64,000 bases of DNA from an uncultured Actinomycetes bacterium (GTDB lineage Bacteria; Actinomycetota; Thermoleophilia; UBA2241): the NCBI GenBank assembly GCA_963725665.1, contig CAVRZA010000001.1:32001-96000 (forward strand), written 5' to 3'. The notes under the pieces were generated by a model, which saw only the letters and a program-made list of their open reading frames with translations, was not told the DNA's origin and ran no database searches. Shown here in pieces: positions 14,170 through 40,117 of the stretch; within the stretch, counting starts at the first letter, position 1; the number at the start of each line of letters is the position of its first letter. Both the position numbers and the translations under genes were made by a program.

Positions 14170-14297
14170 AGCCGGGGCGTCTTGGTCGCCACGGCGATGC
14201 TTTCGGTGGCCCACGGAAGGTATCTCCCGAGAAGCTCTCGCACATCGAGGGGGTATTCCGGGCTGCCCCCGGGGTCAGAGAGCGCGGAAAGACAACG
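14170..14297 (+). repeat. Repeat family R1, copy 1 (subtype A)
   Basis: gatgctttcgg-tggccca-cggaaggtatc...gagggggtattccgggc. Confidence 0.8.
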
Positions 14298-14568
14298 GTC
14301 GGCCCCCGTTGGGAGCCGAGATCGTGCCCATCATCGGAAAGCTGAAGACGCCCGTTTGAAGCCAGCGCAGCCGTCGATAGTCCCTTTGCCGTCGGCCTGC
14401 TGAAGCGGCTTGTTCCCCCGTCACGTGGTGGTAACCAGTGCCATGGAACACGCCCGCGCCTGCCGGGCAGGCGACGTCGTCGGCGGGGACCCTTCGTGTG
14501 GAGAGAGGCGCAGCGGCCCCTTCGCCGAGGTTCGCGACCCGGAGTGCTAGTGGCACCAGTCACGGGCT

Positions 14569-14652
14569 GGCCCCAGCAGCTGATATGGTCGCCAGCCGGA
14601 GAGGCCTTCCGCGGCCCACGGAAGGTATCTCCGAGCCACTCCTAGGTATCCG
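14569..14652 (+). repeat. Repeat family R1, copy 2 (subtype B, right part truncated)
   Basis: gaggccttccg-cggccca-cggaaggtatc. Confidence 0.8.
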
Positions 14653-14825
14653 GAGAACATCGTGGCGATCCTGATCATTCCGATCGTTCACTTCTGAGAA
14701 TCGGGCGGCCGCGGGCGGCCACCGGCCGCGGCGGTGCATCGCGAGTGGTTTCGGTCGCGCGGTTCGCGAGCGAGGCAACCCAGACTGTGGACACGATCGA
14801 CGGCTCCCGGGATACTGAGGATGCC

Positions 14826-15809
14826 ATGCCGAACCAGGAGAACGACCCGAACCGCATCAATGACTCCACCTCGCGCAAGCTGATCTCGACGGCGCCGTGG
14901 ACGTTCTTCGGGGTGCCGAGCTGCAGTGACCTGGGCGATCTCGACGCGCAGGTGGCCTTCCTGGGCGTGCCCTTTGACGCCGGGACTCCCCAGCCCGGCA
15001 TTCCCACCGGCCAGGCGGCCGGGCCCAGCGCCGCACGTCTCGCTTCCCGGGACCAGTTCTCCTATGGCGACAGCGGATCGCTGGGGTGGTACGACGTCGA
15101 GACCGACCGCGATCGCCTCATCGGGGTGACGATGGCCGACGTCGGCGATGTCAAGATCCAGGGGGCCCAGCTCGAGTCCAACTTCAGCCGCATGACCGCG
15201 GTCATGCGCCGCATCACCGAGCGCGGTACGCTGCCGGTGGCCGTCGGCGGCGATCATTCGGTCAGCTACCCGCTCGCGCGCGGCATGCAACCGCTAGGCG
15301 AGATCGACGTCGTCTACTTCGACGGGCATGCTGACTTCCTCGACGAGCTCGACGGCTCCCGGTTCAGCGGCGCGAGCGAGATGCGGCGCATCAGCGAGCT
15401 GCCCTTCGTGCGCAGCGTCACGGCGCTCGGCATCCGCAACGTGGAGCGCGACGAGATCGACGCGATGCGCGAGTCGGGCGTGCGCTGGGCGACGACCCTC
15501 GACTTGATCGATCGTGAGAGCGCCGACGTCGTGGCGGAGCTGGTGCCCCGCTCGCGCGCGCTCTACGTCTCGATCGACCTCGACGTCCTCGACATCTCCC
15601 TGACCCCCGGCCATAGCCTCCCGGAGCCGGGAGGGTTGAGCTATCGGCAGCTTCGCGCAGCGCTCGCTCAGGTCGCTCATCGGGGAAGGGTAGTTGGGTT
15701 CGATGTCGCGGAACTCAATCCAGCGCTCGATCCCGGAGGCAGCACGGCTCGCACTGCGACCTGGCTCATCACGCATTTCCTCAGCGAGATCTTCGACCAG
15801 GCGCGCTGA
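14826..15809 (+). CDS. Agmatinase/ureohydrolase family protein
   Basis: GVPFD, GGDHS, FDGHAD and SIDLDVLD motifs. Confidence 0.9.
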   Translation: MPNQENDPNRINDSTSRKLISTAPWTFFGVPSCSDLGDLDAQVAFLGVPFDAGTPQPGIPTGQAAGPSAARLASRDQFSYGDSGSLGWYDVETDRDRLIGVTMADVGDVKIQGAQLESNFSRMTAVMRRITERGTLPVAVGGDHSVSYPLARGMQPLGEIDVVYFDGHADFLDELDGSRFSGASEMRRISELPFVRSVTALGIRNVERDEIDAMRESGVRWATTLDLIDRESADVVAELVPRSRALYVSIDLDVLDISLTPGHSLPEPGGLSYRQLRAALAQVAHRGRVVGFDVAELNPALDPGGSTARTATWLITHFLSEIFDQAR

Positions 15810-15950
15810 ACGCAGGGGGCGGCTTCTACTCCCGGAGAGTTGTCCGCAGGCTGGCACTGGCCCCCCCCGCCGACCTCAAAGGTGAGGACATGTCGGCGCG
15901 ACGATCGCGTCGGTGGCCGCGAAAACCCTGCATATACGTCTGACGAGGGC

Positions 15951-15998
15951 TGGTAGTGCATACCGGATTCGAACCGGTGTTACCGCCGTCAGAGGGCG
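15951..15998 (-). repeat. 3' duplicate of tRNA-Glu (att scar)
   Basis: 46/48 identical to 45559-45606; left flank also resembles 45531-45558. Confidence 0.92.
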
Positions 15999-16116
15999 CC
16001 GATCAGACACCACTGAGCGGTTGCCGCCGTGGGCTCAGGACGGCTGGCGGCACATCGGCGACTGCGACTTTGACTGGTGCCTGCCGGAGCGAGGACCTGC
16101 TGCAGCGCCAGCCTGC

Positions 16117-16533
16117 TCAGCCGACCTTGGCATCGGGGAGATGGAATCCAAAGGCCCCATTGTGGACATACACGAGCTGGCAAGCTTCGATGTATTGGGC
16201 GTCGTGGATTCGGCGTGCGCGGATATATCCGACATCGCCCTTGTCAAAGAAGATCCTCCTTCCATCGGGGACCAACGAGCCCGCTTCCTTGCGGTAGAAC
16301 TGGACCGACATCCTTCCTTCTACGACGACCGTCATATCATCGCCTGGGTGGAAGTGAGGCGGCTCTTCAGTGCCCGCCTGCCAGCGTTCGAGCATCACCT
16401 CGACCCCGTCAGGGTTCGTTGGATAGGTGGTGCGAACCGTGAATCCCTCTGGTGTTCCTGGGGCGGGGACGTGATTGCTCCACACTTCGCTGGTCGCAGA
16501 GGTGACATTCTGAGTTACGTCATCAACAGACAT
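16117..16533 (-). CDS. Cupin domain protein
   Basis: PPHFHPG...VVEG...H cupin motifs; lower GC. Confidence 0.8.
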   Translation of the reverse strand: MSVDDVTQNVTSATSEVWSNHVPAPGTPEGFTVRTTYPTNPDGVEVMLERWQAGTEEPPHFHPGDDMTVVVEGRMSVQFYRKEAGSLVPDGRRIFFDKGDVGYIRARRIHDAQYIEACQLVYVHNGAFGFHLPDAKVG

Positions 16534-16608
16534 CGTCTGCCCCCTCCTGTCTTTGCAGCGGCTTTACCCGAGCATCGTAGACGGGACTCTACTTCGGTGG
16601 CAACTAGA

Positions 16609-16681
16609 ACCATTCTGCGACCCAAATGCGCGGGATGGGGCGGGGTCGACGAGCGCCGTCTGCGACCATTCTGCGACCCAA
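16609..16681 (+). repeat. 17-bp direct repeat accattctgcgacccaa x2
   Basis: Copies at 16609 and 16665; resembles the GCAACC-n-TGCAACC motif of R2. Confidence 0.75.
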
Positions 16682-16739
16682 GTCGCTGTGCCTGCGCAGG
16701 TCGATCCGGCAGTGAAGAAGGCTGCGTGTAACGAAACGA

Positions 16740-16773
16740 GCAGCCGGGGCCGGCTAACGCCGGCCCCGGCCGC
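16740..16773. terminator. GC-rich hairpin downstream of the MMPL gene
   Basis: gccggggccggc-taac-gccggccccggc. Confidence 0.6.
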
Positions 16774-16801
16774 ACAGGGCCTAAGGCCCGGGGGTTCAGC
16801 T

Positions 16802-19156
16802 CTAGCGGGCCGGGGCGGCCCCGTAAGCCGGCGCCCTGAATGCCGGCACGCGCTCGGTCTGCGGTGCCGGCACGCCCTCCGGCTGGCCGTCGTCGCGACC
16901 GTCGCGCGGGGCGCCGGCCGTCCCGGCCGGCACGTGCTCGTCCACGCGCCCCTCGACGCTCACGTTGGGCAGCCACTGCAGCCAGCGCGGCAGGTACCAG
17001 TTCCAGTCACCGAGCAGCGCCATGCCGGCCGGGACGATGATCGTCCGCACGACGGTGGCGTCGAGGAAGATCGCGACGGCGAGGCCGAAGCCCATCTGCT
17101 GGAACATGACCAGCTCGCCAGTCGCCATGCCGCCGAAGACGCAGACCATGATGGCCGCGGCGCCGGTGATGATGCTGGCGGTGCGGCCGATGCCGTGGGC
17201 CACGGCCTCGCGCGTGTCGCCGGTGTGGTCGAAGCGTTCCTTGATGCGCGTGAGCAGGAAGACCTGGTAGTCCATCGAGAGCCCGAACAACAGCGAGAAG
17301 AGGAACAGCGGCACCCAGGCCTCGATGGAGTCGACCTGGGTCAATCCCAGCAGCCCGGCGCCGACGCCTTTCTGGAAGACCAGCACGAGGAGGCCGTAGG
17401 CGGCGCCCACGCTGAGCAGGTTCATGAGGATCGCCTTGGCCGGGATGACGACTGAGCGGAAGGCGACGAGCAGGAGCACGAAGCTCAGACTCAGGACCAC
17501 GGCCAGCGCGATGGGCAGCCAGTGGTCGAAGAAGGCGAGGTAGTCGACGACGCCGGCCGTCGTGCCGGCGATGTACACGTGGGAGGCGGTGGCGCCGAAG
17601 GCGGCCGGCACGACGCTGTCGCGCAGCTGCCTGATGACGTCCTGCGTCGCCTCGCCGGCAGGGTCGCCGGCGAGCGGCACCGAGAGCACGGTGAGGTCGC
17701 GGGCCTTGTTCGCGGCGACCTGCGCCGGGCCGAACCGCCCGTCGGCCTTCAGCGCGGCCTGGAGACGGGCGGTGCCGTCCTTGACGGCCGCGGCGTCCGC
17801 CCGCCCGTCGATGACGATCTGCACGGGATTGGCCTTGCCCAGCGAGAAGTCGCGGTCGAGGATGTCCCAGCCCTGCTTGGCATACCGATCGTCCGGGTAG
17901 TCGGTCGCGGTCTTGCCGGTGCTGCCGGTCTGCATGAACACGATGGGCGATGCGGCCAGGAGGAGGAGGGTGACGGCGGTGGCCAGCCAGATCACCGGCC
18001 GCCGCATGATGCTGTGGGAGAGCTTCTCCCAGACGCCCTCGTGGCCGTTGGCGCGGCGAGTGGCGAAGCGGCTCACGAGCGGCACGTGCAGCGCGTTGAC
18101 GCGGTCGCCGAGCAGGCCCATCAGCGCGGGCAGCAGGATGAGCGAGGTGAGCAGCGTGGTAAAGACGACGAGCATCGCGCCGATGCCCATGCTGATGGTG
18201 AGGTCCAGCGGCACGATGACCATGCCGAGCATTGCGAGCACCACGGTCATGCCGCTGAAGAAGATGGCGCGGTTGGCGGTGGCGCCGGTGGCGGCGACGG
18301 CATCGATCTTCTCGAGGCCGCGCGCGCGCTCCTCCCGGTAGCGGCTGATGATGAACAGGGTGTAGTCGATGCCGACGGCGAGGCCCATCGTAGTGAGGAT
18401 GTTCAGCACGAAGGTGTGCATGGGGTAGAGCTGGCCGATTAGGCCGGTGAGCGTGAGCGCCAGGACGATGCTGAGCACGCTGAGCACCAGCGGCATGAAC
18501 GCGGCCAGCAGGGCGCCGAACACCACGACGAGCACGATGAGCGCGACCGGGACGCCGAAGATCTCGGCCTTCTCCATGTCGCTCTTGGCGAGTTCGTTGC
18601 CCATCTGGTTCAGGCTGGCGGTGCCCGTCTGCTGAAGCGTGAAGTCCCCTCCCTGGCCGGCGGTGACGACCGCGTGCAGCTCGTCGACGTTGTCGATGGC
18701 TGTGTTCAGGTCGCCCGCCATGACCACTTGGATGAGCATGGCGCGGCCGTCCTTCGAGACGAGCGTCGGATCCTTCGCCTGGTAGTAGGTCGCCACGCTC
18801 TCGACGATTCCGTGGCCGAGGCCCGTGATCTCGCCGGCGAGCTCGGTCACGTAGGCCTTATAGGCTGCGTCCTTTGCCGTGTGGGCGGCGGAGCGCACGA
18901 TCACGAACTCAGACATCTTCTGCGGGCCGGTCATGCGGTCCTGGATGAGTTCCAGACCGATCGTGCTGTCGGGCTGCTTGCCGTGCTGTTTTGTCTCCGA
19001 CGTGAGCCCGCTGCTGAGGAGCGAGCTCGTGCCGAGGACGGCGACCACGATGATGGTCACCCAGATCCCCATGGTGCGCCACGGGTGGGTGGCGCTGCTG
19101 CGGGCAAGGCGCTCGGTGAATCCTGTGCTGGTCTTCGGCGAGGTCCTGAGTGACAT
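16802..19156 (-). CDS. MMPL family transporter (paralogue 1)
   Basis: GLAVGIDY and LFGLSMDYQVF motifs; two hydrophobic repeats. Confidence 0.93.
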   Translation of the reverse strand: MSLRTSPKTSTGFTERLARSSATHPWRTMGIWVTIIVVAVLGTSSLLSSGLTSETKQHGKQPDSTIGLELIQDRMTGPQKMSEFVIVRSAAHTAKDAAYKAYVTELAGEITGLGHGIVESVATYYQAKDPTLVSKDGRAMLIQVVMAGDLNTAIDNVDELHAVVTAGQGGDFTLQQTGTASLNQMGNELAKSDMEKAEIFGVPVALIVLVVVFGALLAAFMPLVLSVLSIVLALTLTGLIGQLYPMHTFVLNILTTMGLAVGIDYTLFIISRYREERARGLEKIDAVAATGATANRAIFFSGMTVVLAMLGMVIVPLDLTISMGIGAMLVVFTTLLTSLILLPALMGLLGDRVNALHVPLVSRFATRRANGHEGVWEKLSHSIMRRPVIWLATAVTLLLLAASPIVFMQTGSTGKTATDYPDDRYAKQGWDILDRDFSLGKANPVQIVIDGRADAAAVKDGTARLQAALKADGRFGPAQVAANKARDLTVLSVPLAGDPAGEATQDVIRQLRDSVVPAAFGATASHVYIAGTTAGVVDYLAFFDHWLPIALAVVLSLSFVLLLVAFRSVVIPAKAILMNLLSVGAAYGLLVLVFQKGVGAGLLGLTQVDSIEAWVPLFLFSLLFGLSMDYQVFLLTRIKERFDHTGDTREAVAHGIGRTASIITGAAAIMVCVFGGMATGELVMFQQMGFGLAVAIFLDATVVRTIIVPAGMALLGDWNWYLPRWLQWLPNVSVEGRVDEHVPAGTAGAPRDGRDDGQPEGVPAPQTERVPAFRAPAYGAAPAR

Positions 19157-19318
19157 CGTTCTCCCCTTTGGCATCTGTTGTCCTGTGAGGGCCGTCATGT
19201 ACGTGAGTGGCGTAACGCGCCGGTCTGTGACAACTCCGGCCAGGAATCGTCAACGCCATCCTTCTGCGACCGCGTGCTAGAATCGGCGGCGTCCCGCAAC
19301 ACCGTCGCTGAGGTTCGC

Positions 19319-20041
19319 GTGACGACACTCTCGCAGACGACCCTTGCGCCGCCCCAGCCCGCAGCCGTCGTGGAGCAGTACGGTCGCCTCGTCTCCTCGA
19401 TCTGCTGGCGCATGACGAGCGATCAGGACGCGGCACGCGAAGCGGCGCAGGAGGTGTGGCTCGCCGTCCTGGAGGGCCTGCCGGGCTTCCGCGGCGAGTC
19501 CGCTCTGTCCACCTGGATCTACAGCATCGCGCGGCGCGTCGTGGGCCGCTACGCGCAAGCCCAACGCACCTACAGCGTGCGCTTCCTGAGTGCGTCCTAT
19601 GAAGCCGAAGGTGAACTCGCGCCCCCGGACGTGCCTGATCTGGATCACGACCTGTGGGTACGGGAGATGTGCGACCTATGCCTGTGCGGGACGCTGCAGT
19701 GCCTGGAGCCCGACGCGCGTCTGGCCTACCTCCTGCGCGAGGTCGCGGAACTGGACTACGACGATGTCGCTCTGGTGCTGGAGATCGAGCCGGACGCTGC
19801 CCGTCAGATAGTGTCGCGGGCACGCCGCAAGCTGAATGGCTTCATGAGCGGGCACTGCGCCCTGGCCAACCCGACGGGCGCCTGTCGCTGCCGTATGCGC
19901 CGGCGGGTGCAGGGCATCGACCTGCCCGCGGAATACACGCGGCTGCGCAGGACCGTGCATCGGGTGCGCGTCATCAAGGAATCCGAGCAGGTGCTGCCGC
20001 CCAAGGACTACTGGCTGGAGTTGCCACAGACCGCCGCGTAG
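19319..20041 (+). CDS. ECF sigma-70 factor with Cys-rich C-terminal extension
   Basis: AQEVWL...FRGESALSTWIYSIA region 2, region 4, HCALANPTGACRC. Confidence 0.88.
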   Translation: MTTLSQTTLAPPQPAAVVEQYGRLVSSICWRMTSDQDAAREAAQEVWLAVLEGLPGFRGESALSTWIYSIARRVVGRYAQAQRTYSVRFLSASYEAEGELAPPDVPDLDHDLWVREMCDLCLCGTLQCLEPDARLAYLLREVAELDYDDVALVLEIEPDAARQIVSRARRKLNGFMSGHCALANPTGACRCRMRRRVQGIDLPAEYTRLRRTVHRVRVIKESEQVLPPKDYWLELPQTAA

Positions 20042-20103
20042 GGCCACTCACGTCCGTGAGAGCCCTCACGAAAGAGGGCGCCCGACCGGACTGAGGGGAC
20101 GCA

Positions 20104-20560
20104 TTGGAACCCGCGCAGCACATCCGCACCCTGCAGCTGACCTACGCCTCTCAGCTCGCCGACTCCGTGCGGCAATATGAGAACGCCGGTGTGCTCGAGC
20201 GCATCACGGCGGAGCGCCGCACCGCGCGTCTCGCGAGTGGCACGGCACAGGCCGCTCAGATGGGTATCACGCAGCCGGCCGAAGCCTTCACGAAGTCGGC
20301 CGAGCTGTTCGGCTGCGCCTACTGGACGGTCGCCGCCGACGCGTGTTCGGAAGAGGAGGCGAGCGACAGCCTCTCGAAGATCGCCGAGCGCTTCCACCTG
20401 TCGCTCTCGACGGTCTCGCATCACGTCAAGGAGCTCAGAAACGCGGGCCGTATCACCTGCGAGAAGCGTGGGCAGAAGCTCCACTGCTGGGTTGAACCGG
20501 AGGTCCTGAAAGGCCTCGAGCAGTTCGCCAAAGGGAGTGGGGGTAAGGAGCTGACCCCTT
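20104..20560 (+). pseudogene. Chimera of a hypothetical N-terminus and an ArsR-type HTH fragment
   Basis: LSLSTVSHHVKELRNAGRITCEKRG ArsR helix follows an unrelated N-half; frame runs on over the next gene. Confidence 0.6.
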
Positions 20561-20611
20561 TCTTTGCGCGCGATGGTTCGATCGCTGTCGAAAGTCTGAA
20601 GGAGAACCGGG

Positions 20612-20974
20612 ATGAAACCAACCACTGTCTGGATGGCCATCGTGCTGCTCGCCGTGGGTGCGTGTGGCCTCCTCGACGCCGCCGGCGTCGCCGACTCGAG
20701 CCAGACCATCGGCCAATGGTGGCCGCTTGCCGTGGTCGGCTGGGCGTTGTCGGAGATGCTGGCCACACGACGGCTGACTCTGGGCGGCGTCGTGTGCGCG
20801 GCCGTCGGCCTCGCGTTGCTGGCCGATGAGCAGGGCTGGGCGAGTGGTGTGTTTGTGTGGTCGTCGCTCGCCGTCTTCATCGGCCTCGCGATTCTCGCCG
20901 ATGCCAGCCTCCGGGGCGGTGGCCACAACGGTGATGACGCTCGCTCGGTCGCTGGCGGCGGAGCGGCGTCATGA
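20612..20974 (+). CDS. Small multi-TM protein (LiaF-TM/DUF5668-like)
   Basis: QWWPL motif, four hydrophobic segments; ATGA overlap with next gene. Confidence 0.65.
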   Translation: MKPTTVWMAIVLLAVGACGLLDAAGVADSSQTIGQWWPLAVVGWALSEMLATRRLTLGGVVCAAVGLALLADEQGWASGVFVWSSLAVFIGLAILADASLRGGGHNGDDARSVAGGGAAS

Positions 20975-21411
20975 GCCGCCTGCCTCAGCTGGGTCGACGC
21001 GGCGAGGGATGGGTGGCGCTGCAGATGGTCCTCGTCGTCGCGATCAGCGCCACCGGAGCGCGCGGCAGAAGGTGGCCCTCAGCGCTACGTTCTCTGCGAC
21101 TGGGGGCGGCGGGTGTGAGGGGACTCATGGCCCTGTACCTCTTTGTCGCTGGGGTTGCGGCCCTGGGGCGGCAGATCACGCCCTTCCCCAAGCCGGTTGA
21201 GCAGGGCAGCGTGAAACGAAGCGGGGCCTACGGGCTGGTCCGCCATCCGATGTACGGCGGGGTGCTGCTGCTCACGCTGGCCTGGTCGTTGGTATCGTCG
21301 CCGCTGGCGCTTGGCCGGCGTCTGCGGCCTCGTCAGGGCGGTGAGCTCTCACGATCCGTCCCAACGGTTCGCCGTGCGCCGCACCGGGAAAACTCAGGCG
21401 TCCCCGCATAA
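20971..21411 (+). pseudogene. Isoprenylcysteine carboxyl methyltransferase/PEMT family protein, C-terminally truncated
   Basis: GAYGLVRHPMY motif; sequence diverges after SPLAL. Confidence 0.7.
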
Positions 21412-21428
21412 ATTAGGAGAGCTTGTCC

Positions 21429-21929
21429 ATGCCTACTGTAGAACAGTCCATCGACGTGAACGTCAACGTGACCACTGCGTACGACCAGTGGACCAGGTTC
21501 GAGAGCTTTCCCCAGTGGATGGAGGGAGTCGCGTCGGTCGACCAGATCGACACCAGCCACCTCCACTGGGTCGCCAAGGTCAGGAACGAGTTCGCCACGG
21601 CAAAGAACGAAACCCGTGAGTGGGACGCCCAAATCACAGAGCAGGCCCGTGACCAGCGCATCTCCTGGGAAAGCGTCGGCGGAAAGCCCGATGAGAAGCC
21701 CAACGCGGGGGCGGCCACGTTTGAGCCGCTCGGCGATTCGTCGTGCCGCGTCACCTTTCGGATGGACTGGGAGCCGGAAGGCGCGCTCGAGACGCCGAGC
21801 GAAGTGCTCGACGCGGTGCACCAGGTGGTGGCGGCGGACCTCGCGCGCTTCAAGGACTTCATCGAGGCGAGAGGCGACCAGACCGGCTCATGGCGAGGCG
21901 AGAAGCTTCTGAAGACAAGCGCCGGCTAA
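21429..21929 (+). CDS. SRPBCC (polyketide cyclase-like) protein
   Basis: YDQWTRFESFPQWMEGV...DLARFKDFIE. Confidence 0.88.
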   Translation: MPTVEQSIDVNVNVTTAYDQWTRFESFPQWMEGVASVDQIDTSHLHWVAKVRNEFATAKNETREWDAQITEQARDQRISWESVGGKPDEKPNAGAATFEPLGDSSCRVTFRMDWEPEGALETPSEVLDAVHQVVAADLARFKDFIEARGDQTGSWRGEKLLKTSAG

Positions 21930-21980
21930 GTCAATCGCTCGGCTCGATCAAGAGCCGATTCAGGGAGTTGACCAAGATGA
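21910..21980 (+). repeat. Duplicated gene leader, copy 1
   Basis: aagtcaatcgctcggctcgatcaagagccga..agggagttga..atga. Confidence 0.85.
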
Positions 21981-22708
21981 GCGATGTTTTGGGTTCCCGC
22001 AGAACGTATTCGAGACTGATCGGAGCGCTGTTTCTGTTGGGGTTTGTCACCTACGGAGTGGGCAGCCTCCTCGTGACTCACGTTCTCCGCGGTGCTGACC
22101 TACTTTCGACGATTTCCGCCCAGCAGACCACCCTGGCCCTCGGAGCCTTTCTGCTGTTGTTGAACTCGGTGGCGGATATTGGCAAAGGTGTCCTCTTCTT
22201 CCCAATTCTGGAGAACCACGGCAAGAGAACCGCGCTGGCCTACCTGGCCGCGATGATCGTCGAGGTAGTCCTGTTGGCCGTCGGGGCGCTCGGTGTGCTG
22301 ATGGTCATTCCCTTGAGCCGACACGGTGTTGACGCGGGTGTGGCGAGCGTGGTGGGGGCCAAGGCCCTCGCATCGGTCGCGACCCAGTGGAACACCATGG
22401 CCTACCAGATCGCAGAGATGTCGCTGGCATTCGGCGGCGTGTTCCTCTGTGCGCTGCTGTTCCGGACCTGGCTCATCCCTCGATTCCTCTCGGTGTGGGG
22501 CTTGATCGGCTACGCGCTCCTCATGGCGGGAGCCATCGCTGAGATCTTCGGGGTCCACATCGGCCTCGTGCTCTCGATCCCCGGTGGAGGCTTCGAAGTG
22601 GTGTTGGCCTTCTGGCTCATCATCAAGGGCTTCCAGCCGGAGGCCTACGGCCGTGATTCGAAGTCGCCGCTCGTGGGGCCGGCGGCAGAGCTGGACGCGG
22701 CAGCTTAG
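21977..22708 (+). CDS. DUF4386 family membrane protein
   Basis: LIPRFLSVWGLIGY...FEVVLAFWLIIKGF. Confidence 0.85.
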   Translation: MSDVLGSRRTYSRLIGALFLLGFVTYGVGSLLVTHVLRGADLLSTISAQQTTLALGAFLLLLNSVADIGKGVLFFPILENHGKRTALAYLAAMIVEVVLLAVGALGVLMVIPLSRHGVDAGVASVVGAKALASVATQWNTMAYQIAEMSLAFGGVFLCALLFRTWLIPRFLSVWGLIGYALLMAGAIAEIFGVHIGLVLSIPGGGFEVVLAFWLIIKGFQPEAYGRDSKSPLVGPAAELDAAA

Positions 22709-22771
22709 GGCCATGTGACGGGACCGCTGGACGCTGTCGAGTGGTCCCGTAACGGCCTGTGCGTTTCCCCT

Positions 22772-22843
22772 CAGAAACAAAGCACTGGCCAAGTCAATCG
22801 CTCGGCTCGATCAAGAGCCGACCTAGGGAGTTGATCGACATGA
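22772..22843 (+). repeat. Duplicated gene leader, copy 2
   Basis: Near-identical to 21910-21980. Confidence 0.85.
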
Positions 22844-23844
22844 AGGCGATAGTGCAGGACAGGTACGGGTCGTTCGCGGCCCTGGAAAGCAGGGACATCG
22901 CCAAGCCCGAGATCGGTGAGCACGAGGTGCTGGTGCGGGTGGCTGCCGCGGGCCTCCACATCGGCGACTGCTTCGGCGTGAAGGGCGCGCCGCTGCTCAT
23001 GCGTCTGGAGAGCGGCCTGCTGCGACCGAAGAACGGCGTGCCGGGATACGACTTCGCGGGGCGGGTCGAGGCGGTCGGACCCGGCGTGGCTGCGTTCCAG
23101 CCCGGCGATGAGGTGTTCGGCGCGACCAAGGGCACCTGTGCCGAGTATGTGCCCGTTGCCGAAGACAAGCTCGCCCTAAAGCCGGCCAACCTCTCCTACG
23201 AGCAGGCGGCCGCCTTGCCCACGTCGGCCCTCGCGGCGTTGCACGGCCTGCGTGACGCCGGCAAGCTGCAGCCCGGTCAGAAGGTCCTCATCAACGGCGC
23301 CTCGGGCGGCGTCGGCAGCTTCGCCGTGCAGATCGCCAAGGCCTTCGGGGCGGAGGTGACCGGCGTGACAAGCACGAACAACGTGGAGATGGTGCGCTCG
23401 CTCGGCGCCGACCACGTGATCGACTACACGCGGGAGGACTTCACCACGGGCGGGCCGCGCTACGACCTCATCTTCGACAACGTGGAGAACCGCTCGCTGC
23501 GCGACTGCCGGCGGGCGCTCACGCCCGACGGCACTCTCGTTCTAAACAGTGGCACGGGGGCCCACGGGCTCGCCATGCTGGTGCGCCTTCTCCGGCCACT
23601 GGTGCTGTCGCCGTTCCTGCATCAGAATCTGCGCCGCTATCTCTCGCACCCGAATCGCACCGACCTGAACGTCCTGAAGGCGCTCGCGGAAGAGGGGAAG
23701 CTCAGGCCGGTCATCGATCGCACCTACCCGCTCGGGGATACCGCTACGGCGCTTCGCCACATCGAGGCGGGACACACTCGCGGGAAGGTCGTCGTCAGCG
23801 TGTCAGACGCCGTCGCCCGCGAGGATCAACGGAAGACAGCCTGA
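22840..23844 (+). CDS. NAD(P)-dependent medium-chain oxidoreductase (MDR family)
   Basis: PGYDFAGRV, INGASGGVG and LGADHVIDY motifs. Confidence 0.9.
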   Translation: MKAIVQDRYGSFAALESRDIAKPEIGEHEVLVRVAAAGLHIGDCFGVKGAPLLMRLESGLLRPKNGVPGYDFAGRVEAVGPGVAAFQPGDEVFGATKGTCAEYVPVAEDKLALKPANLSYEQAAALPTSALAALHGLRDAGKLQPGQKVLINGASGGVGSFAVQIAKAFGAEVTGVTSTNNVEMVRSLGADHVIDYTREDFTTGGPRYDLIFDNVENRSLRDCRRALTPDGTLVLNSGTGAHGLAMLVRLLRPLVLSPFLHQNLRRYLSHPNRTDLNVLKALAEEGKLRPVIDRTYPLGDTATALRHIEAGHTRGKVVVSVSDAVAREDQRKTA

Positions 23845-29819: not shown

Positions 29820-31201
29820 GGCACCTCACGCTCCGCGGCCGGATCGAACCGCGGCTCGGTGCCCGCGGGTCGGTTCTCGCCCTGATCCTCCGTCTTGCCT
29901 GTGGTGGTCTGGCCATCGCCCTGGTGGCAGGGTGCAGTGGTGGCGTAGTCCCGAAGACCTCCCCGAGCACAGGGAGAGTCCAGCTCGTGTACCAGGATTG
30001 GCGCACGGAGTGGTTCCCTCCCATGGCGCAAGAGGAGCTGGCCAAATTCCAGTCCCAGCACCCCAACCTGAGCGTCTTCTATACACCTGACCCGGAGAAC
30101 CTCGCCGACCAGATGCCAATCGACATGCAAGCCGGAAACGCTGCCGACGTGTTTCAAGGATGCTGCGGCTTCTTCCCGGCCTGGGCGCAAAAAGGTTATG
30201 TGCTCGATCTCAGCGGGTTCGTGAAGGCCGACTATGACAAGTTGCTGGTGGCCGACTGGGACCCGGCCCAGTACAAGGCTTTCTTTGACGCCGACGGACA
30301 CCAGTTCGGGGTGCCCAAGTACCAGGGCACGCTCGTCCTCTACTACAACAAGGACATCTTCGACAGGTACAAGGTCGCCTACCCGGACGCGTCCTGGACT
30401 CACGACGACTACCTTGCGGCCATGAAGAAGCTGACGCGGGACACGAACGGAGACGGCAGCACCGACATCTGGGGCAGCATGATCGACATCGGCTGGGACC
30501 GGCTGCAGGTGCACATCAACGACTGGGGCGGTCACATCGTGGACCCCAAGGACCCAACGAAGTGCGACATCGACAGCCCTGAAGCGCTCGCGGCGCTCGA
30601 GTGGGTGCGCGCGCGGATGTGGGACGACAAGGTGATGGCCACGGCCACCGATGTGAACAACGTGGGGACCCGGGTGGCCTTCTCTGAGGGCAAGCTCGCC
30701 ATGGTGGAGGACGGCTCCTGGGCTCTCAAGGACATTCTCGAACACTCGCACTTCCGCATCGGGGTGGCGCCGATACCTGCCGGCCCGGTTAGGCGGGTCA
30801 CCCTGAGCACGACCGACGGGTTCGGCATCTACTCCAGGACCCTGCACCCCCGGGAGGCATGGGAGCTGGTGAAGTTCCTCGTGAGCAGGGAGTACGGGCT
30901 GGCGATGGCCAGGGCGAACCTGCTGCAGCCGGCGCGGCTATCTCTCGTGGCGGACTGGGAGCGATTCGTGAAGCAGCAGTACCCGCGGCAGGCCAGGGGC
31001 ATGGATCTCGACGTGTTCGCGGCCCCGCACCGCGAGAGCTACTCGGTCGTTCAGGAGGTGTTCCCGCGGAACATGGATGAGGCTGCTCGCCTGCTCGACG
31101 ACGCTTTCGCCAAGATCTTCACCCTCGGCCAGGCGAAGGTCGACATTCTGCACGCCGTGAGCCGGCAGATCGAAGCGGCTCAGACGCGCAGCGGCCCCTG
31201 A
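29816..31201 (+). CDS. Sugar-type solute-binding lipoprotein (family 1)
   Basis: Lipobox LVAGC, LYYNKDIF motif; ATGA overlap with regulator. Confidence 0.88.
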   Translation: MRHLTLRGRIEPRLGARGSVLALILRLACGGLAIALVAGCSGGVVPKTSPSTGRVQLVYQDWRTEWFPPMAQEELAKFQSQHPNLSVFYTPDPENLADQMPIDMQAGNAADVFQGCCGFFPAWAQKGYVLDLSGFVKADYDKLLVADWDPAQYKAFFDADGHQFGVPKYQGTLVLYYNKDIFDRYKVAYPDASWTHDDYLAAMKKLTRDTNGDGSTDIWGSMIDIGWDRLQVHINDWGGHIVDPKDPTKCDIDSPEALAALEWVRARMWDDKVMATATDVNNVGTRVAFSEGKLAMVEDGSWALKDILEHSHFRIGVAPIPAGPVRRVTLSTTDGFGIYSRTLHPREAWELVKFLVSREYGLAMARANLLQPARLSLVADWERFVKQQYPRQARGMDLDVFAAPHRESYSVVQEVFPRNMDEAARLLDDAFAKIFTLGQAKVDILHAVSRQIEAAQTRSGP

Positions 31202-34173: not shown

Positions 34174-34270
34174 CCTAGTCGAGTGACCAGGCCAAAGACT
34201 GTCCCCCTCGCCAGTGCCGATTCCCCCCGCCCGGCGGGCGTGGTGCGCCCGCCCTCGCCGTTACTCTGAC
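34174..34270 (+). promoter_or_regulatory. Promoter with 7-4-7 operator, duplicated at 37039
   Basis: cctagtc-gagt-gaccagg, gactgtcccc, putative -10 tactct. Confidence 0.65.
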
Positions 34271-34318
34271 ATGCAAGCAGACCGGGCACGAGTGAACAGA
34301 GCCAAGAGGGGGTGTGTC

Positions 34319-34570: not shown

Positions 34571-36950
34571 GAGCGCGCGCAGGCACTCGGACGAGAAGAA
34601 GAGGCGGGTCGCCGGCTTCACCGAGCGCCTCGCCAGAGGGAGCGCCACCCATCCCTGGCGCACAATCGGCATCTGGGGGGCGCTCATCGCGGTCGCCTTT
34701 CTCGCCGTCGGCTCGCTCCTTGGCAGCGGGCTGACCTCAGAGATGAAGTTCCGCGGCAGCGAGCCCGGCAGCGTGACCGCCGACCGTCTCATCCAGGAGC
34801 GTCTCAGCGGACCGCACAAGGTCACCGACTTTGTCATCGTCAAGTCGGCCACCCGCACCGTCGACGACCCCGTCTTCAAGGGCTACGTCATAGGTCTCGC
34901 GACGAAGATCGAGGCCCTCGGGCCGGGGGTGGTCGCCGACGCCTCCAGCTTCTACCTCACCAAGGATCCCACGCTGGTCTCCAAGGACAAGCGCTCGACG
35001 CTCATCCCTGTGACCATGGCCGGCGGCATCGACGATGCCCTGAAGAACGTCGACAAGGTGCATGAGACGGCGGTCGCCGCGCAGGCCGACGGGTTTACCA
35101 CCGCGCAGGCGGGCGAGGCCAGTCTCAACGAGATGTTCACCAAGCTGGCGGAGTCCGACCTGCAGCGCGGGGAGATCTTCGGCATCCCCGCCGCACTGAT
35201 CGTGCTGGTCGTCGTGTTCGGCGCCGTGCTGGCGGCATGCATGCCCATCGTGTTGAGCCTGATCAGTATCGCCCTGGCTCTCGCGCTCACGGCTGTCATT
35301 GGCCAGGTCTACCCGATGAACACCTTTGTCCTGAACATCCTCACCATGATGGGTCTGGCGGTGGGCATCGACTACTCGCTCTTCGTCATCAGCCGCTACC
35401 GTGAGGAGCGCGCCCGCGGCCTGGAGAAGATCGACGCCATCGCCGCCACCGGCGCCACCGCCAACCGCGCCATCTTCTTCAGTGGCATGACCGTGGTTCT
35501 GGCCATGATCGGCATGGTCATCGTGCCGCTCGACATCATGATCAGCATGGGTGTCGGCGTGATGCTCGTGGTCTTCACGACCCTGCTCACCGCGCTCATC
35601 GCGCTGCCCGCCGTCATGAGCGTGCTGGGCGACCGCATCAACGCTCTGCGCGTGCCCTTCCTCGGGCGCGCGGCCGCCAAGCGTGCCAACGGGGACGGCG
35701 GCGTCTGGGAGCGTCTCGCCCACAGCATCATGCGCCGCCCCGTGGCGTGGCTGAGCGTGGCCGTCACGGCCCTGCTGGTGCTCGCCTCCCCGGTCCTCAT
35801 GATGAACACAGGGAGCAACACCCAAAGCGCCGCTCACCTGCCCGACTCCCACTACGCCAAGCAGGGCTGGGACATCCTCGGTCGTGACTTCTCGCTCGGC
35901 AAGGCCAACCCGCTGATGATCGTCGTCGACGGCCCCGCCGCTTCGGCGCAGGTCAAGCAGAGCATCGCCCGTCTCGAGGCCGCCATGAAGAGCGACGGGC
36001 GCTTCGCTCCCGTCCAGGTGACCGTCAACAAGGCTGGCGACCTGACATTGCTGACCACCGCCTTGGCCGGTGATCCCGTGGCCGACTCCACACAGGCGCT
36101 CGTGAAGCACCTGCGCAGCGACATGATCCCCGCGGCGTTCGCCGGCAGTCCCGCCCAGGTGTACGTCACCGGCACCACGGCGGGCGTGGTCGACTACCTG
36201 GGGTTCTTCGACACCTGGCTGCCGATCGTGCTTCTCGTCGTCCTCTCGCTGAGCTTCATACTGCTTCTGGTGGCCTTCCGGTCGATCGTGGTGCCGGCAC
36301 AGGCCATCGCCATGAACCTGCTCAGCGTGGGCGCCTCCTACGGCCTGCTGGTGCTCGTGTTCCAGAAGGGCGTCGGCGCCAAGCTCCTCGGCCTGACGCA
36401 GGTCGAGACCATCGAGGCCTGGGTGCCCCTGTTCCTCTTCGCCCTGCTCTTCGGCCTCTCGATGGACTACCAGGTCTTCCTGCTTAGCCGCATCAAGGAG
36501 CGCTTCGACCGCACGGGTGACACGCGCGAGGCAGTCGGGTACGGCGTCGGGCGGACCGCCGGCATCATCACCGGCGCGGCCGCCATCATGGTCTGCGTCT
36601 TCGGCGGCATGGCGACCGGTCAGCTGGTGATGTTCCAGCAGATGGGCTTTGGCCTGGCCGTCGCGGTCTTCATCGACGCCACCATCGTGCGCACGATCAT
36701 CGTCCCCAGCGCCATGGCCATTCTGGGCGAGCGCAACTGGTACCTGCCGCGCTGGCTAGCGTGGCTCCCGAACGTGAGCGTCGAAGGTCACGCCTACGAG
36801 CCCGATGGCGAGGTCCCGCAGACGGAGGCTCCCGAGCGCGCGCCGTCGGCCGAGCCGCAGCGGCGTCCGGGAACGGGTCCGGTCCCGGCTCTCCGCCCGG
36901 CTCCCGACGTCGCCATGCGACGGGCTCCGCGTCCCGACCTAGAGCACTAG
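34557..36950 (+). CDS. MMPL family transporter (paralogue 2)
   Basis: Same motifs as, and clearly similar to, 16802..19156. Confidence 0.93.
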   Translation: MSQRRSARRHSDEKKRRVAGFTERLARGSATHPWRTIGIWGALIAVAFLAVGSLLGSGLTSEMKFRGSEPGSVTADRLIQERLSGPHKVTDFVIVKSATRTVDDPVFKGYVIGLATKIEALGPGVVADASSFYLTKDPTLVSKDKRSTLIPVTMAGGIDDALKNVDKVHETAVAAQADGFTTAQAGEASLNEMFTKLAESDLQRGEIFGIPAALIVLVVVFGAVLAACMPIVLSLISIALALALTAVIGQVYPMNTFVLNILTMMGLAVGIDYSLFVISRYREERARGLEKIDAIAATGATANRAIFFSGMTVVLAMIGMVIVPLDIMISMGVGVMLVVFTTLLTALIALPAVMSVLGDRINALRVPFLGRAAAKRANGDGGVWERLAHSIMRRPVAWLSVAVTALLVLASPVLMMNTGSNTQSAAHLPDSHYAKQGWDILGRDFSLGKANPLMIVVDGPAASAQVKQSIARLEAAMKSDGRFAPVQVTVNKAGDLTLLTTALAGDPVADSTQALVKHLRSDMIPAAFAGSPAQVYVTGTTAGVVDYLGFFDTWLPIVLLVVLSLSFILLLVAFRSIVVPAQAIAMNLLSVGASYGLLVLVFQKGVGAKLLGLTQVETIEAWVPLFLFALLFGLSMDYQVFLLSRIKERFDRTGDTREAVGYGVGRTAGIITGAAAIMVCVFGGMATGQLVMFQQMGFGLAVAVFIDATIVRTIIVPSAMAILGERNWYLPRWLAWLPNVSVEGHAYEPDGEVPQTEAPERAPSAEPQRRPGTGPVPALRPAPDVAMRRAPRPDLEH

Positions 36951-37038: not shown

Positions 37039-37135
37039 CCCAGTCGACTGACTAGGTGAAGGACTGTCCCCCCTGCCAGCTCAAAGTCTCCCCACTAGGC
37101 GGGCGCGCTGAGACAGGTCAAGCCTCTACCCTGAC
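37039..37135 (+). promoter_or_regulatory. Promoter with 7-4-7 operator
   Basis: cccagtc-gact-gactagg, gactgtcccc, putative -10 taccct. Confidence 0.65.
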
Positions 37136-37178
37136 AGTGCAGACGAAGCAAACGAAGGCACGAGAGAGGGAGTCCGTC

Positions 37179-38043: not shown

Positions 38044-38209
38044 ACGGGGTGGATGGAGCGAACAATGACTGGTCTCGCCAAGGCAACGGCATCCGCGACT
38101 GTAAATACGCGGTGCCGAGGCAGGGAATGGACTCATATAGGAAGACTGCCGTGGCAGTGGGAGTGCTGAGCGCCGCGGTGCCGTGAGGGCCGACAAGTGG
38201 GAGGGCAAC

Positions 38210-38963
38210 ATGGACGCAGTCATCACCAGAGAGAGGCCTCGCGCGAGGACGCGAGGCGAACGAGCGCCGGCGGCCGACGCCGCCCTGCGGCGTCGCAAGG
38301 CCGCAATCACGGTGGGCGCGCTGTTCATCATCGGGGACATCGCCGGCGTCCTGAGCTACGTCGTGACCGGAGGTCTGCTGGACGGGCCGGACGCCCTCAC
38401 CAAGATCGCCGCGAACCAGAGCCACCTGGCGCTGGGGGCGCTCCTGGTGCTGACCATGGGCCTGGCGCTGGCCATGATCCCGGTCGTGATGTATCCGATC
38501 TTCAAGAAGTACAACGAGGTCCTGGCGCTCGGGACCGTCGTCTTCCGGGGCGCGCTCGAGACCGTCGCCTACACGGCCAGCGCAGGCTATCTGGCTGGTG
38601 CTCCTCGAACTCAGCCGGGAGCACCGGGCGGTGGCGTCTGCCGGCGCTCCGCACGTCCAGACACTCAGCGGGCTCCTCGTGGCGACGCAAGGGTCGGTCG
38701 CCACCTGGCTCACTTCCATCGTCTTCAGCCTCGGCGCCCTGATGTTCTACTACCTCTTCTACCAGTCGCGGCTCATCCCCCGCTGGCTGTCGGTCTGGGG
38801 TCTCGCCGGTGCCGCCCTGTACCTGGCCACGCCGTTGCTGGACATGTTCGGCCACGGGTTCGGCGTCCTGATGGCCCCCCTGGCGGTGGCGGAGATCGTC
38901 CTGGCCGTCTGGCTGATCGTCAAAGGGCTGGCCTCACCGGGCCCTGAGGAGGCGGCTGCCTGA
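38210..38963 (+). CDS. DUF4386 family membrane protein, frameshift near 38580
   Basis: N-half in the 38183 frame, C-half (SRLIPRWLSVWG...WLIVKG) in the 38598 frame. Confidence 0.82.
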
Positions 38964-39050
38964 CCGATTGTTCGAGCTGATGCAGATAGCCGACGGGCCA
39001 AGGGCACGATTGGAAGTACGTTGGCCCGCCATCTAGACGAAGGGGAAGGA

Positions 39051-39500
39051 ATGAACACAAGCAAGAAGACCACTGGAATGGAAGATATGAAAGCAAGACT
39101 CTCAACACTCTGGGTTGTGGTCATGTTCAACATGGTCTTCGCGGACATTCTCACCTTCATCAAGCCTGGAGCGCTGCAGGAATTGTGGGCCGGACAAGCG
39201 GGCGTGCAAATCACCCAGGGGCTTCTGCTGGTGTTCGCGCTACTCCTGGAGATCCCGATTGCGATGATCTTCGTGTCTCGCATCCTGAAGCCCGGGCCCA
39301 ACCGCTGGGCGAACACCGTTGCAGCGGCAATCACCACGGCGTTCGTGGTAGGCGGCGGGTCGCTGACTCCTCACTACGTGTTCTTCGCGACCGTAGAAAT
39401 CGCGTGCATGGCGCTGATCGTCCGGTCCGTGTGGACGTGCCGCCGCTCAGAGACCGTCGCCGAGCGTCGGGACGAGGTGCCTGCGCCGGTCGCCTGGTAG
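39051..39500 (+). CDS. DUF6326-like membrane protein
   Basis: LSTLWVVVMFNMVFADI...EIPIAMIFVSRIL...NRWAN. Confidence 0.78.
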   Translation: MNTSKKTTGMEDMKARLSTLWVVVMFNMVFADILTFIKPGALQELWAGQAGVQITQGLLLVFALLLEIPIAMIFVSRILKPGPNRWANTVAAAITTAFVVGGGSLTPHYVFFATVEIACMALIVRSVWTCRRSETVAERRDEVPAPVAW

Positions 39501-39527
39501 TCGGGACAGTCCCGATCCTGAAGGACT

Positions 39528-39562
39528 CGAGGGGGCGGTCGACTGCTCGACGGCCCCCTCGT
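39528..39562 (+). terminator. Hairpin after the DUF6326-like gene
   Basis: cgagggggcggtcga-ctgc-tcgacggccccctcg. Confidence 0.55.
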
Positions 39563-39683
39563 CGTCTTGGCGGACGCACGATGGTCGGGAAGCCCGCGAG
39601 TTGCTGAGAGGTTGCCGAATCTGCGGGAAGCCGCAGGCTCACCCCTCGAAGCGGCGACCCGGCGAGCGCCCCCGAACAGACCT

Positions 39684-39795
39684 GTTGCCGCCTCTCAAGG
39701 GCGGTAACGAAGTAGTTCTCCAGATGGCTCCGTGAGCGTGGAGGGAGGGAGTGGGCTCACTCTCCCTACCCGTCGCTGCAACCACCGTGCAACCC
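39684..39795 (+). repeat. Repeat family R2, full copy
   Basis: gttgccgcc-tctcaag-ggcggtaac core, tgagcgtgga, hairpin, gcaaccaccgtgcaaccc. Confidence 0.85.
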
Positions 39796-40018
39796 CCTGG
39801 TGCCTGTACCGGCTCCTTCGAAGGGCTGCTCGAGTCTGCGGGTATGCGGGCACGGGCGGGTACGTGGGGAAGCCCGATCGACGAATCGTCACGTCGATTC
39901 GAGTCCGCGTGCCGAAAGCGCTTAGCGTCGGACCGGCTCTCAGAGACACCCGCACCTCCCCGCATACCCGCAGCTCCTGACCGCCTGAAGTGTCTTCACG
40001 GGCAGGCCTCGATGCGGG

Positions 40019-40117
40019 GAGGTCTTCCGCGGCCCACGAAAGGTTCTCCTTCGCACTCTCGGATACCGAGGCGTATTCGGGGCCGTCTGCGGGCTCAGAG
40101 GATGCGGGAAGGCAACC
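40019..40117 (+). repeat. Repeat family R1, copy 5
   Basis: gaggtcttccg-cggccca-cgaaaggttct...gtattcggggccg...ctcagag. Confidence 0.78.

Follow-up and report, generated by a model that had tools for sequence, protein, structure and literature searches.

The window considered here, a stretch of 64,000 nucleotides (nt) from contig CAVRZA010000001.1 of an uncultured bacterium of the class Thermoleophilia, contains five copies of a short non-coding repeat, R1, on one strand among accessory genes near a tRNA-Glu gene. This raises the question of what the repeat is and how it came to lie there. Thermoleophilia abound in soils and have scarcely been brought into culture. An earlier note on this DNA had described R1 as intergenic sites of ~100 bp with an 11-7-11 dyad core and had proposed that they act as recombination sites of an integron-like cassette system. 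The present analysis shows that R1 is a genuine lineage-restricted repeat, which is absent from Rfam and has a selected fold, a strict polarity and an exclusive tie to tRNA-linked accessory islands. It is tentatively read here as a DNA site that an enzyme supplied in trans would use and at which small gene-carrying units would end or be joined, and we consider this reading quite possible rather than probable.

R1 copies and their confinement to tRNA-bounded islands

The dyad pattern of R1, searched with at most three mismatches, matched the + strand of the window at positions 14199, 14604, 25479, 26251 and 40022, each of them being echoed, as a palindrome, on the − strand. A total of 15 matches was found in the window versus 5.1 ± 2.6 expected, and none of 100 shuffles reached 15. 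The nhmmer profile built from the five window copies recovered all of them with E-values from 1e-24 to 3e-28. The pattern scan, the profile hidden Markov model (HMM) and a covariance model built from 11 R1 copies agree on five co-oriented copies at the places where the earlier note had located them, their length being ~105 nt. Copy 1 (14192–14300, +; covariance model score of 89 bits) starts 49 nt past the stop codon of the gene for a 141-aa protein (13718–14143) and has an A-type 5′ end (CGGCGATG) and a full right part. Copy 2 (14597–14698, +; 55 bits) has a B-type 5′ end and a perfect hairpin, family similarity is lost on its right side after ~60 nt, and a gene of the arginase family (Pfam) begins 3′ of it at 14745. 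Copy 3 (25472–25577, +; 90 bits) is of A-type, with a companion repeat, R2, ~190 nt to its left. Copy 4 (26244–26344, +; 96 bits) is of B-type, and copy 5 (40015–40120, +; 97.5 bits) is a single B-type copy with R2 ~210 nt to its left. The successive spacings are 405, 10875, 772 and 13771 nt.

The intergenic placement was confirmed: no overlapping open reading frame (ORF) has coding-like third-position G+C, the values being 0.64–0.73 in ORFs that overlap R1 copies versus 0.80–0.94 in real genes (genome 68% G+C). The alignments also bear out the consensus given previously, including its downstream part GATATCGAGGGGTATTCYGGGCCGCC. The weak sixth copy suspected near 7474 was missed by both the HMM and the covariance model and is at most a degenerate hairpin, GCCTTCC-TGGCC-GGAGGGC.

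All five window copies point towards the intact tRNA-Glu(CTC) gene (45559–45634, −; ARAGORN and Rfam), and islands run leftwards from its 3′ end. The islands are bounded by tRNA-Glu fragments, namely 3′ halves at 28776–28823 (−; 48 nt at 100%) and 15951–15998 (−; 48 nt at 96%, repeat family D2) and, as the outermost boundary, a 3′-end fragment at 6205–6233 (−; 29 nt at 97%, blastn against the genome's own tRNAs). The three fragments share the orientation of the intact gene, and such co-oriented partial copies point to successive integrations at one tRNA. Accessory genes carried by the window islands include RibD_C, glyoxalase, SRPBCC, DUF4386, DUF1801, DUF6326, MMPL, ECF sigma factor and two-component system genes. 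Synteny of the window with two relatives is confined to the right side of tRNA-Glu; no shared sequence was found on the left side (tblastx with a score filter). Tycheposons have been described as forming tandem islands at tRNA genes, in which partial tRNAs and decayed elements occur (10.1101/2020.12.28.424599).

The source genome (G000; 3.73 Mb, 12 contigs) contains eight R1 copies in total according to nhmmer, in agreement with the covariance model, which gave eight forward matches, reverse-strand echoes and one weak match (E 0.2). The three loci outside the window are C6:244363-244469(−), C1:123421-123516(−) and C1:479909-479969(+). All eight copies lie in DNA of islands bounded by tRNA fragments, which amounts to 215.5 kb, or 5.8%, of the genome: five are in the tRNA-Glu array, one is 3 kb from tRNA-Ala (C1), one is 25–35 nt from a tRNA-Ala fragment (C6) and one is in a tRNA-Arg array. 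The chance that four independent R1 loci would all fall within islands is ~1e-5. An even spread like that of repetitive extragenic palindromic (REP) sequences, which would have spoken against the proposal of the earlier note, was thus not found, the copies being confined to gene-variable islands. Outside the annotated tRNA genes of G000, 25 tRNA-fragment matches were found at ~23 places, and the sequence indicates that many tandem integrations have probably taken place at its tRNA genes. The partial 3′ halves are those of tRNA-Glu, -Ala, -Arg, -Lys, -Met, -Cys, -Phe, -Pro and -Pyl, often with several per tRNA. R1 was also considered as the attachment repeat of the tRNA islands, and this was rejected: it resembles none of the 52 tRNAs, and the tRNA fragments are a separate repeat class.

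The covariance model found R1 in 12 of the 88 other genomes of the same Thermoleophilia family (13 of 89 with G000): 7 of 12 in genus g2, the only one in genus g9, 4 of 54 in genus g10 and none of 21 in seven other genera. Alignments of the relatives' copies revealed clear homology centered on CGGAAGGTATCTCCGTCGCGCTC; a blastn search with one R1 copy against 40 relatives gave a single 32-nt match only. A pattern scan of JGI metagenomes returned two contigs with three R1 copies. Two pattern scans of genome contigs covered 185,579 species' genomes. The first gave no matches and the second gave 37 stretches, of which five were known R1 contigs of the same family; among the remaining 32, the covariance model confirmed only L052, which also belongs to this family. 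A divergent copy was recognized by eye in L048, a Thermoleophilia metagenome-assembled genome (MAG), and the other inspected stretches were discarded as chance matches inside coding sequence. No true R1 was found in these two scans beyond MAGs of the Thermoleophilia family, nor in two pattern scans of viral contigs (one chance match and no matches, respectively). A search of the whole window against Rfam at gathering thresholds matched only three tRNAs. In the region 25300–26500 at E ≤ 10, four noise matches were obtained, with 9–16 bits versus gathering scores of 50–100. The comparison with Rfam that the earlier note had called for therefore gave no known non-coding RNA family for R1, even at E ≤ 10. 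None of the papers listed by a literature search dealt with R1-like repeats.

Fold and polarity of R1

The most conserved part of R1 is the 3′ dyad arm with the next 12 nt, which is nearly invariant. The 5′ arm differs between lineages yet keeps pairing, with bulges. The loop GGCCCA occurs together with the motif GATATCGAGGGGTATTC in this genus, and AGGCCG with GATGGTCGGGGCTATCT in the relatives. Judging from the alignments, such lineage-specific forms are the pattern to be expected of mobile or co-evolving sites. Upstream, conservation ends abruptly at the 5′ arm, except in subfamilies: in 8 of the 27 relatives' copies listed, all from genus g2, three TGCGGGY repeats with a ~10-nt phase lie just upstream. 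The hairpin occupies the first 37–45 nt; the remaining ~70 nt are conserved, non-palindromic and not the hairpin's complement. In addition, TATCT recurs 31 nt apart, and R1 contains the palindrome TATCTC-N11-GAGATA.

The fold was tested by per-sequence folding with swap controls. For the main hairpin, H1, the copies' own halves gave a mean of −15.2 kcal/mol versus −13.5 kcal/mol for swapped halves, and none of 2000 permutations reached the observed value. A second hairpin, H1b (CGGAAG..GUAU..CUUCCG, with an invariant GGUAU in the loop), is mutually exclusive with H1 and pairs the CGGAAG segment of H1 with a downstream CUCCG. Its swap test was reached by 12 of 5000 permutations (4 of 5000 among the relatives alone), and both sides of H1b are changed in copies such as L036:8189 and L034:15056. 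The swap test of a third, common hairpin, H2 (GAGAUNG/CUAUCUC), was not significant, with 912 of 5000 permutations reaching the observed value. A chain of pairings b′:b, b:c, c:c′ and c′:c2 is possible in R1. RNAalifold predicted no pairs in the mixed MAFFT alignment of 39 sequences, as the subfamilies differ in the register of their 5′ arms. The arms are unequally conserved and show compensating changes, and therefore a folded hairpin is suggested over a duplex core whose two recombinase-binding arms are equivalent. Taken whole, the element gives the more stable fold on the + strand in 29 copies versus 9 (Wilcoxon p = 2e-4), which may reflect G-richness. The hairpin region alone showed no strand preference in energy (15 versus 24), and with this result the G–U wobbles of the + strand were dropped as evidence.

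The strict co-orientation of clustered copies noted earlier holds both in the window and in relatives. All copies of a contig lie on the same strand in the window (5/5) and on the contigs G047:C28 (5/5), G044:C11 (4/4), G008:C122, G046:C38 and G042:C8 (3/3 each), and G047:C149, G001:C129 and L009 (2/2 each). Co-orientation on every multi-copy contig has a probability of 2^-20 if copies are independent, a figure limited by the fact that arrays at the shared tRNA-Glu locus are not mutually independent. The G046 and G042 arrays sit to the left of a minus-strand tRNA-Glu, as in the window. R1 has the same strand relative to the tRNA-Glu attachment region on 7 of the 8 relatives' contigs that hold both, and 7 of the 8 copies in G000 point at the 3′ end of the tRNA or tRNA fragment of their island. 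Seven of the eight G000 copies are also on the G-rich strand of their contig; among the relatives' pieces, the skew varies or is close to zero. The spacing of R1 in relatives varies from 0.85 kb to more than 10 kb, with an overall range of 0.4–14 kb. There are about one or two copies per island in the window, G046 and G042, clusters of 3–5 copies at a spacing of 0.85–2 kb were found in G008 and G047, and the distance from the tRNA-side boundary to R1 varies from 1.25 to 5.6 kb.

The orientation of R1 is independent of the neighboring genes. The 5′ neighbor is on the same strand as R1 in 22 of 35 cases versus a background of 148 of 246, and the 3′ neighbor is convergent with R1 in 19 of 33 cases, a co-oriented downstream gene being present in 14 of 33. 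Eight of the 39 copies lie in purely divergent spacers and 31 abut at least one gene 3′ end. No ORF or leader peptide shared downstream of R1 copies was found, and a promoter and terminator scan of 13500–27000 revealed no site at R1. In several genomes, R1 pairs surround one or two genes, which are of unrelated kinds and may lie in either orientation.

Module edges, candidate enzymes and competing explanations

The earlier note had proposed testing whether gene content changes at the spacer of the core. Homologues of the 141-aa gene before copy 1 were found in 36 of the 88 other family genomes and those of the 149-aa gene between copies 3 and 4 in 22 of 88. None of the 22 loci fetched for both genes holds R1, including 0 of 11 for the 149-aa gene. 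The DNA homology at these loci covers the gene and little else (25699–26129 for the 149-aa gene). At the closest locus (G060:C82, 87%), the homology extends beyond the stop codon by 49 nt and stops at 14192, the base with which copy 1 begins; the left flank of this copy is host 3′-untranslated region (3′-UTR) sequence up to the base before R1. The one informative comparison thus does break at R1, but at its first base, ~15 nt to the left of the 7-bp spacer. For the RibD_C gene, the homology with a 94% paralogue reaches to 25164, and 25168 is the start of R2. On these alignments, R1 and R2 are modules of their own within a mosaic made up of single-gene modules. Accessory genes shared as such modules, with sharp edges located 28–70 nt before the start codon and 27–49 nt after the stop codon with unrelated sequence beyond, are exemplified by window 24498–25164 / C4:360860-361527 and window 13648–14192 / G060:C82.

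The left-flank subtypes described previously are real: copies 1 and 3 are of A-type (...CACGGCGATG) and copies 2 and 4 of B-type (GGCTGATNTGGTC...GAGAGG), and positions 5–8 read GATG in the first copy of a pair and GAGG in the second. The order A then B, seen in both window pairs, recurs in a third pair on the metagenome contig L009 (three of three in the genus) but is not general in the relatives. As claimed, there is a single coding-like ORF between copies 3 and 4, at 25700–26149 (−). It encodes 149 aa with a third-position G+C of 0.85, is antisense to R1 and matched no Pfam family. The idea that circles carrying a B site enter A sites fits the data poorly, as all single copies are B-like and the A and B types fail to carry over to relatives. 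The host flank to the left of copy 1 and the loss of family similarity on the right side of copy 2 fit two-ended units or scars similar to attL/attR.

From these features we infer recognition at the DNA level, movement or recombination, and an acting enzyme. R1 would be a cis-acting DNA site recognized by an enzyme encoded elsewhere. Its parts would be the compensated hairpin or dyad, the nearly invariant 3′ arm with the adjoining block CGGAAGGTATCTCCGTCGCGCTC, the downstream TATCT-type repeats and, in some subfamilies, the upstream phased direct repeats. R1 ends or junctions would delimit small units with zero to two genes, A-type copies being the left end or junction and B-type copies the right one in this genus, and such units would be inserted or exchanged with fixed polarity by the trans enzyme. 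The candidate for this enzyme is an island tyrosine integrase, the only recombinase class found in G000. The islands themselves are tandem integrated elements bounded by tRNA 3′-half fragments, and most of them no longer have their integrase.

A number of results weigh against such a site. Most island genes have no flanking R1, and equally sharp homology breaks occur without a repeat on the other side of the genes analyzed above, so that the breakpoint at 14192 is weak evidence. The pairwise identity among the G000 copies is only 55–80% (median 71%), and therefore there has been no recent movement. The gene and ORF calls follow our own heuristic based on third-position G+C. The linked recombinase for which the earlier note had proposed a search was not found: PF00589 matches are absent from the window and from within 15 kb of R1 on the R1 contigs of five relatives (G047, G044, G008, G046 and G042). 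G000 has 18 tyrosine-recombinase matches to the general PF00589 profile, all outside the window, and only two of its eight R1 copies lie near an integrase, at ~0.5–1.3 kb and 5 kb. The former is C1:478230-479392, which starts ~0.5 kb from an R2–R1 unit, and the latter is a 585-aa integrase near the C6 copy. PF01797 (Y1 HUH transposase) was found neither in G000 (97.5% complete) nor in the same five relatives (0/5), whereas the control search detected it in 6 of 14 known genomes. PF07282 (TnpB) and PF00239 (serine recombinase) were not found in G000, which has only one FtsK-type gene, a chromosomal one; the search for PF13814 (Replic_Relax) was uninformative, as its control was silent everywhere. 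Empty-site searches of genus g2 with 6.5-kb and 16-kb queries gave scattered single-gene modules and no contiguous pair of flanks. Among public reads, 13 runs contain at most 0.13 of the sampled words of 20001–29900. Logan contigs of four runs (X1, X2, X3 and X5) compared with 13001–30000 gave short pieces of related organisms and low-confidence joints (sides <30 nt), for example 25543 to 28926 (X3) and 14635 to 25520 (X5), for which cross-mapping between repeat copies is the simplest reading. No circle or deletion junction was found in those reads, whose sparse coverage weighs neither way.

Mutually exclusive compensated hairpins, such as H1 and H1b, are more typical of an RNA switch than of the DNA site proposed here. 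R1 could accordingly be a structured RNA element (a switch-like leader, 3′-UTR element, insulator or small RNA) that rides on island DNA and whose alternative hairpins, with the common invariant segment CGGAAGG, act in cis or bind a protein; we consider this unlikely, though by no means negligible. The chain of pairings, the greater stability of the whole element on the + strand and the many copies that abut a gene 3′ end would suit it. However, the agreement in orientation with the upstream gene is that of the background and a co-oriented downstream gene is found in a minority of cases, conservation starts at the 5′ arm (except in subfamilies) with no conserved upstream promoter, and neither a promoter- or terminator-like site at R1, nor a downstream ORF, nor an Rfam match was found. 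The advantage of the + strand may be G-richness and is not seen in the hairpin region, and lineage-wide homogenization and co-orientation over tens of kb are unexpected for independent RNA loci. As a double-stranded operator or similar regulatory module, bound by a protein and spread by copying from one intergenic region to another, R1 would have a co-orientation over tens of kb with no regulatory rationale. The short motifs at helical phasing (the TATCT repeats, the palindrome and the TGCGGGY triplicate of one subfamily) and the presence of another repeat, D14, before two start codons agree with an operator, but compensating hairpin changes are unexpected for a duplex, and R1 has no fixed position relative to gene starts, some copies being in purely divergent spacers and most at gene 3′ ends. 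This origin seems highly improbable.

Polarity and confinement would follow directly from tandem integration at tRNA genes if each island brought its own R1 as a passive or trans-used backbone site of integrative elements (a transfer, packaging or replication site, or integrase arm sequences) and not as a cut-and-join point. Every G000 copy is indeed in an island, R1 keeps the same polarity towards the tRNA or attachment region in the proportions given above, the islands of the window, G046 and G042 have about one or two copies each, and two copies are located 25–35 nt from a tRNA fragment (C6:244285-244328; G001:C174). The tycheposon islands are likewise tandem, with partial tRNAs and decayed elements (10.1101/2020.12.28.424599). 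On the other hand, the distance to the tRNA side is variable and no other backbone is common to the islands, genes for transfer or replication were not detected in G000 (apart from the single FtsK, and with the PF13814 control silent), the clusters of 3–5 copies in G008 and G047 exceed one per element, a 23-nt block kept across genera needs ongoing selection, and the two viral-contig scans gave no true match. A backbone site is rather unlikely in our estimation. R1 may also be an RNA element or an inert remnant of the island backbone.

R1 was also compared with the general properties of attC, IS200/IS605, REP and lambda-type att sites. Integron cassettes have one attC site each and so a spacing of roughly one gene. 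R1 resembles attC sites, including clusters of attC sites lacking integrases (CALIN), in its co-oriented sites of ~60–140 nt between mostly small accessory genes in a variable region, its lineage-specific consensus, its compensated hairpin and its arrays that may lack an adjacent integrase. However, attC is one long imperfect palindrome and R1 is a hairpin of 37–45 nt with ~70 nt of non-palindromic sequence; no ends similar to RYYYAAC/GTTRRRY (R″/R′) were seen in R1 by eye; its spacing is irregular (0.4–14 kb) and most genes are unflanked; and the genes enclosed by R1 may run antisense. The integron-like cassette logic of the earlier note is plausible and unproven: island confinement, co-orientation and pairs around one or two genes agree with it, but neither a linked recombinase nor a breakpoint at the spacer was found. 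To our knowledge, integrons have not been reported in Actinomycetota.

The ends of insertion sequences (IS) of the IS200/IS605 group and palindrome-associated transposable elements (PATEs) are similar to R1 in having two ends in direct orientation (R1 pairs being A then B in 3/3), subterminal hairpins with conserved flanks, no obvious terminal inverted repeats or target duplications and a strand- or replication-linked polarity; short non-autonomous copies and passenger DNA are also possible. Unlike them, R1 has no consistent 4–5-nt target beside its left end, PF01797 is absent from G000 and five relatives, and PF07282 is absent from G000. REP sequences with bacterial interspersed mosaic elements (BIMEs), enterobacterial repetitive intergenic consensus (ERIC) sequences and Correia elements are also short multi-copy intergenic hairpin repeats that are lineage-specific and often located at gene 3′ ends, but they are spread through the core genome in both orientations, whereas R1 is island-confined (8/8) and co-oriented, and no REP-associated tyrosine transposase (RAYT, PF01797) was found. 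A classical miniature inverted-repeat transposable element (MITE) was rejected, as only a 7-nt match, GCCTTCC/GGAAGGC, exists between the 5′ arm and the 3′ tail, and no duplicated flank was seen at copy 1, for which the ancestral flank is known.

With lambda-type att sites, R1 has in common a dyad with a conserved 7-nt spacer, phased upstream repeats (TGCGGGY x3; GCAACC x2 in R2), downstream motifs, a footprint of 150–400 bp and co-oriented pairs that flank inserted DNA. The differences are that the R1 arms are compensated like those of a folded hairpin, no integrase is adjacent, single copies are of the wrong type (B) for attB/attP and the breakpoint is at the edge and not in the spacer. The 11-7-11 core resembles lox, FRT and dif by its inverted arms and conserved spacer in all copies (YGGCCCA in this genus, AGGCCG in relatives), but the single breakpoint mapped lies ~15 nt to the left of the spacer and no recombinase is linked. 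The assignment as a tyrosine-recombinase core site thus stands as far as the inverted arms around a conserved spacer of 6–8 bp are concerned, but not with respect to a cognate recombinase or exchange at the spacer. Tycheposons are comparable in that repeated integration at a single tRNA gives rise to partial tRNAs, and the islands contain decayed elements and cargo genes; they account for the tRNA fragments but not for R1, and the word "hairpin" is absent from the main text of the preprint (10.1101/2020.12.28.424599).

In the mosaic that accessory single-gene modules form beside tRNA genes, R1 is the one non-coding feature that is conserved. Cis-mobilizable elements are a further class of tRNA islands that resembles the setting of R1. 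If modules are joined at R1, it would add a recombination site of a new kind to a phylum in which integrons are not known to occur, and would offer a sequence handle for mobile cassettes in metagenomes. That R1 marks a gene-capture system new to Actinomycetota, in which a trans island integrase inserts and excises one- or two-gene units at co-oriented structured sites of ~105 nt unlike attC in tRNA islands without an integrase, so that an integron-like cassette economy is layered on tandem tRNA-site integration, is decidedly doubtful. If R1 is an RNA, it would represent a new class of multi-copy structured RNA tied to mobile DNA.

Companion repeat R2 and other modules of the islands

The companion repeat R2 consists of a hairpin followed by TAACGAAR..GTGAGCGTGGAGGGAGGG..CTCTCC..GCAACCACCCTGCAACCC, and its conserved block ends with GCAACC-N5-GCAACC. 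In the window, nhmmer located it on the + strand at 25181–25288 (E 1.6e-26), 39701–39806 (E 3.8e-25) and 7086–7199 (E 6.4e-25), the last being followed after ~300 nt by the R1-like hairpin near 7474. Within G000, R2 precedes R1 by 50–300 nt at four places, and two further R2 sites stand alone. No R2 was found at the relatives' R1 loci, and therefore the R2–R1 pairing is specific to this genus.

Other repeated segments were observed in the islands. Repeat D14 (21908–21980 and 22771–22843) ends in a ribosome-binding site and ATG before a DUF4386 gene and a zinc-dehydrogenase gene, and another repeated non-coding pair (34174–34271 and 37039–37136) is upstream of genes; both pairs look like re-used regulatory modules. 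The 1.07-kb module at window 26823–27895 is repeated at C8:237415-238415 (97–100%) and C6:438519-439401 (80%), and each of the three copies is near a tRNA fragment (Glu, Pro and Met, respectively). This module encodes a protein of ~212 aa whose N-terminus is signal-like and whose C-terminus carries a membrane anchor; its window copy includes a perfect 72-bp tandem duplication (27178–27321), which the C8 copy does not have. Among relatives, a segment of ~400 nt (162-aa ORF; L038 7348–7731, G046:C38) recurs dozens of times in all 12 genomes of genus g2, sometimes in tandem at a spacing of ~600 nt, e.g., at G042:C5:636002-637561.

The outermost segment bounded by tRNA-Glu contains a glutaminyl-tRNA synthetase gene (9754–11472) and tRNA-Gln(CTG) (11622–11697), and a second tRNA-Gln(CTG) (45651–45724) adjoins the intact tRNA-Glu. 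Two MMPL transporter genes (16933–19123 and 34614–36804), 76% identical and inverted, are in different tRNA-Glu segments. A DUF4386 gene (38183–38947 / 38598–38963) and the integrase C1:478230-479392 are each split over two frames. Five tandem 33-nt units were found within a coding region at window 53062–53270. A gene for an MttB-family methyltransferase is located at window 4759–6189, and ARAGORN detected tRNA-Pyl(CTA) at C6:343702-343774, with a partial copy at C6:342470-342501.

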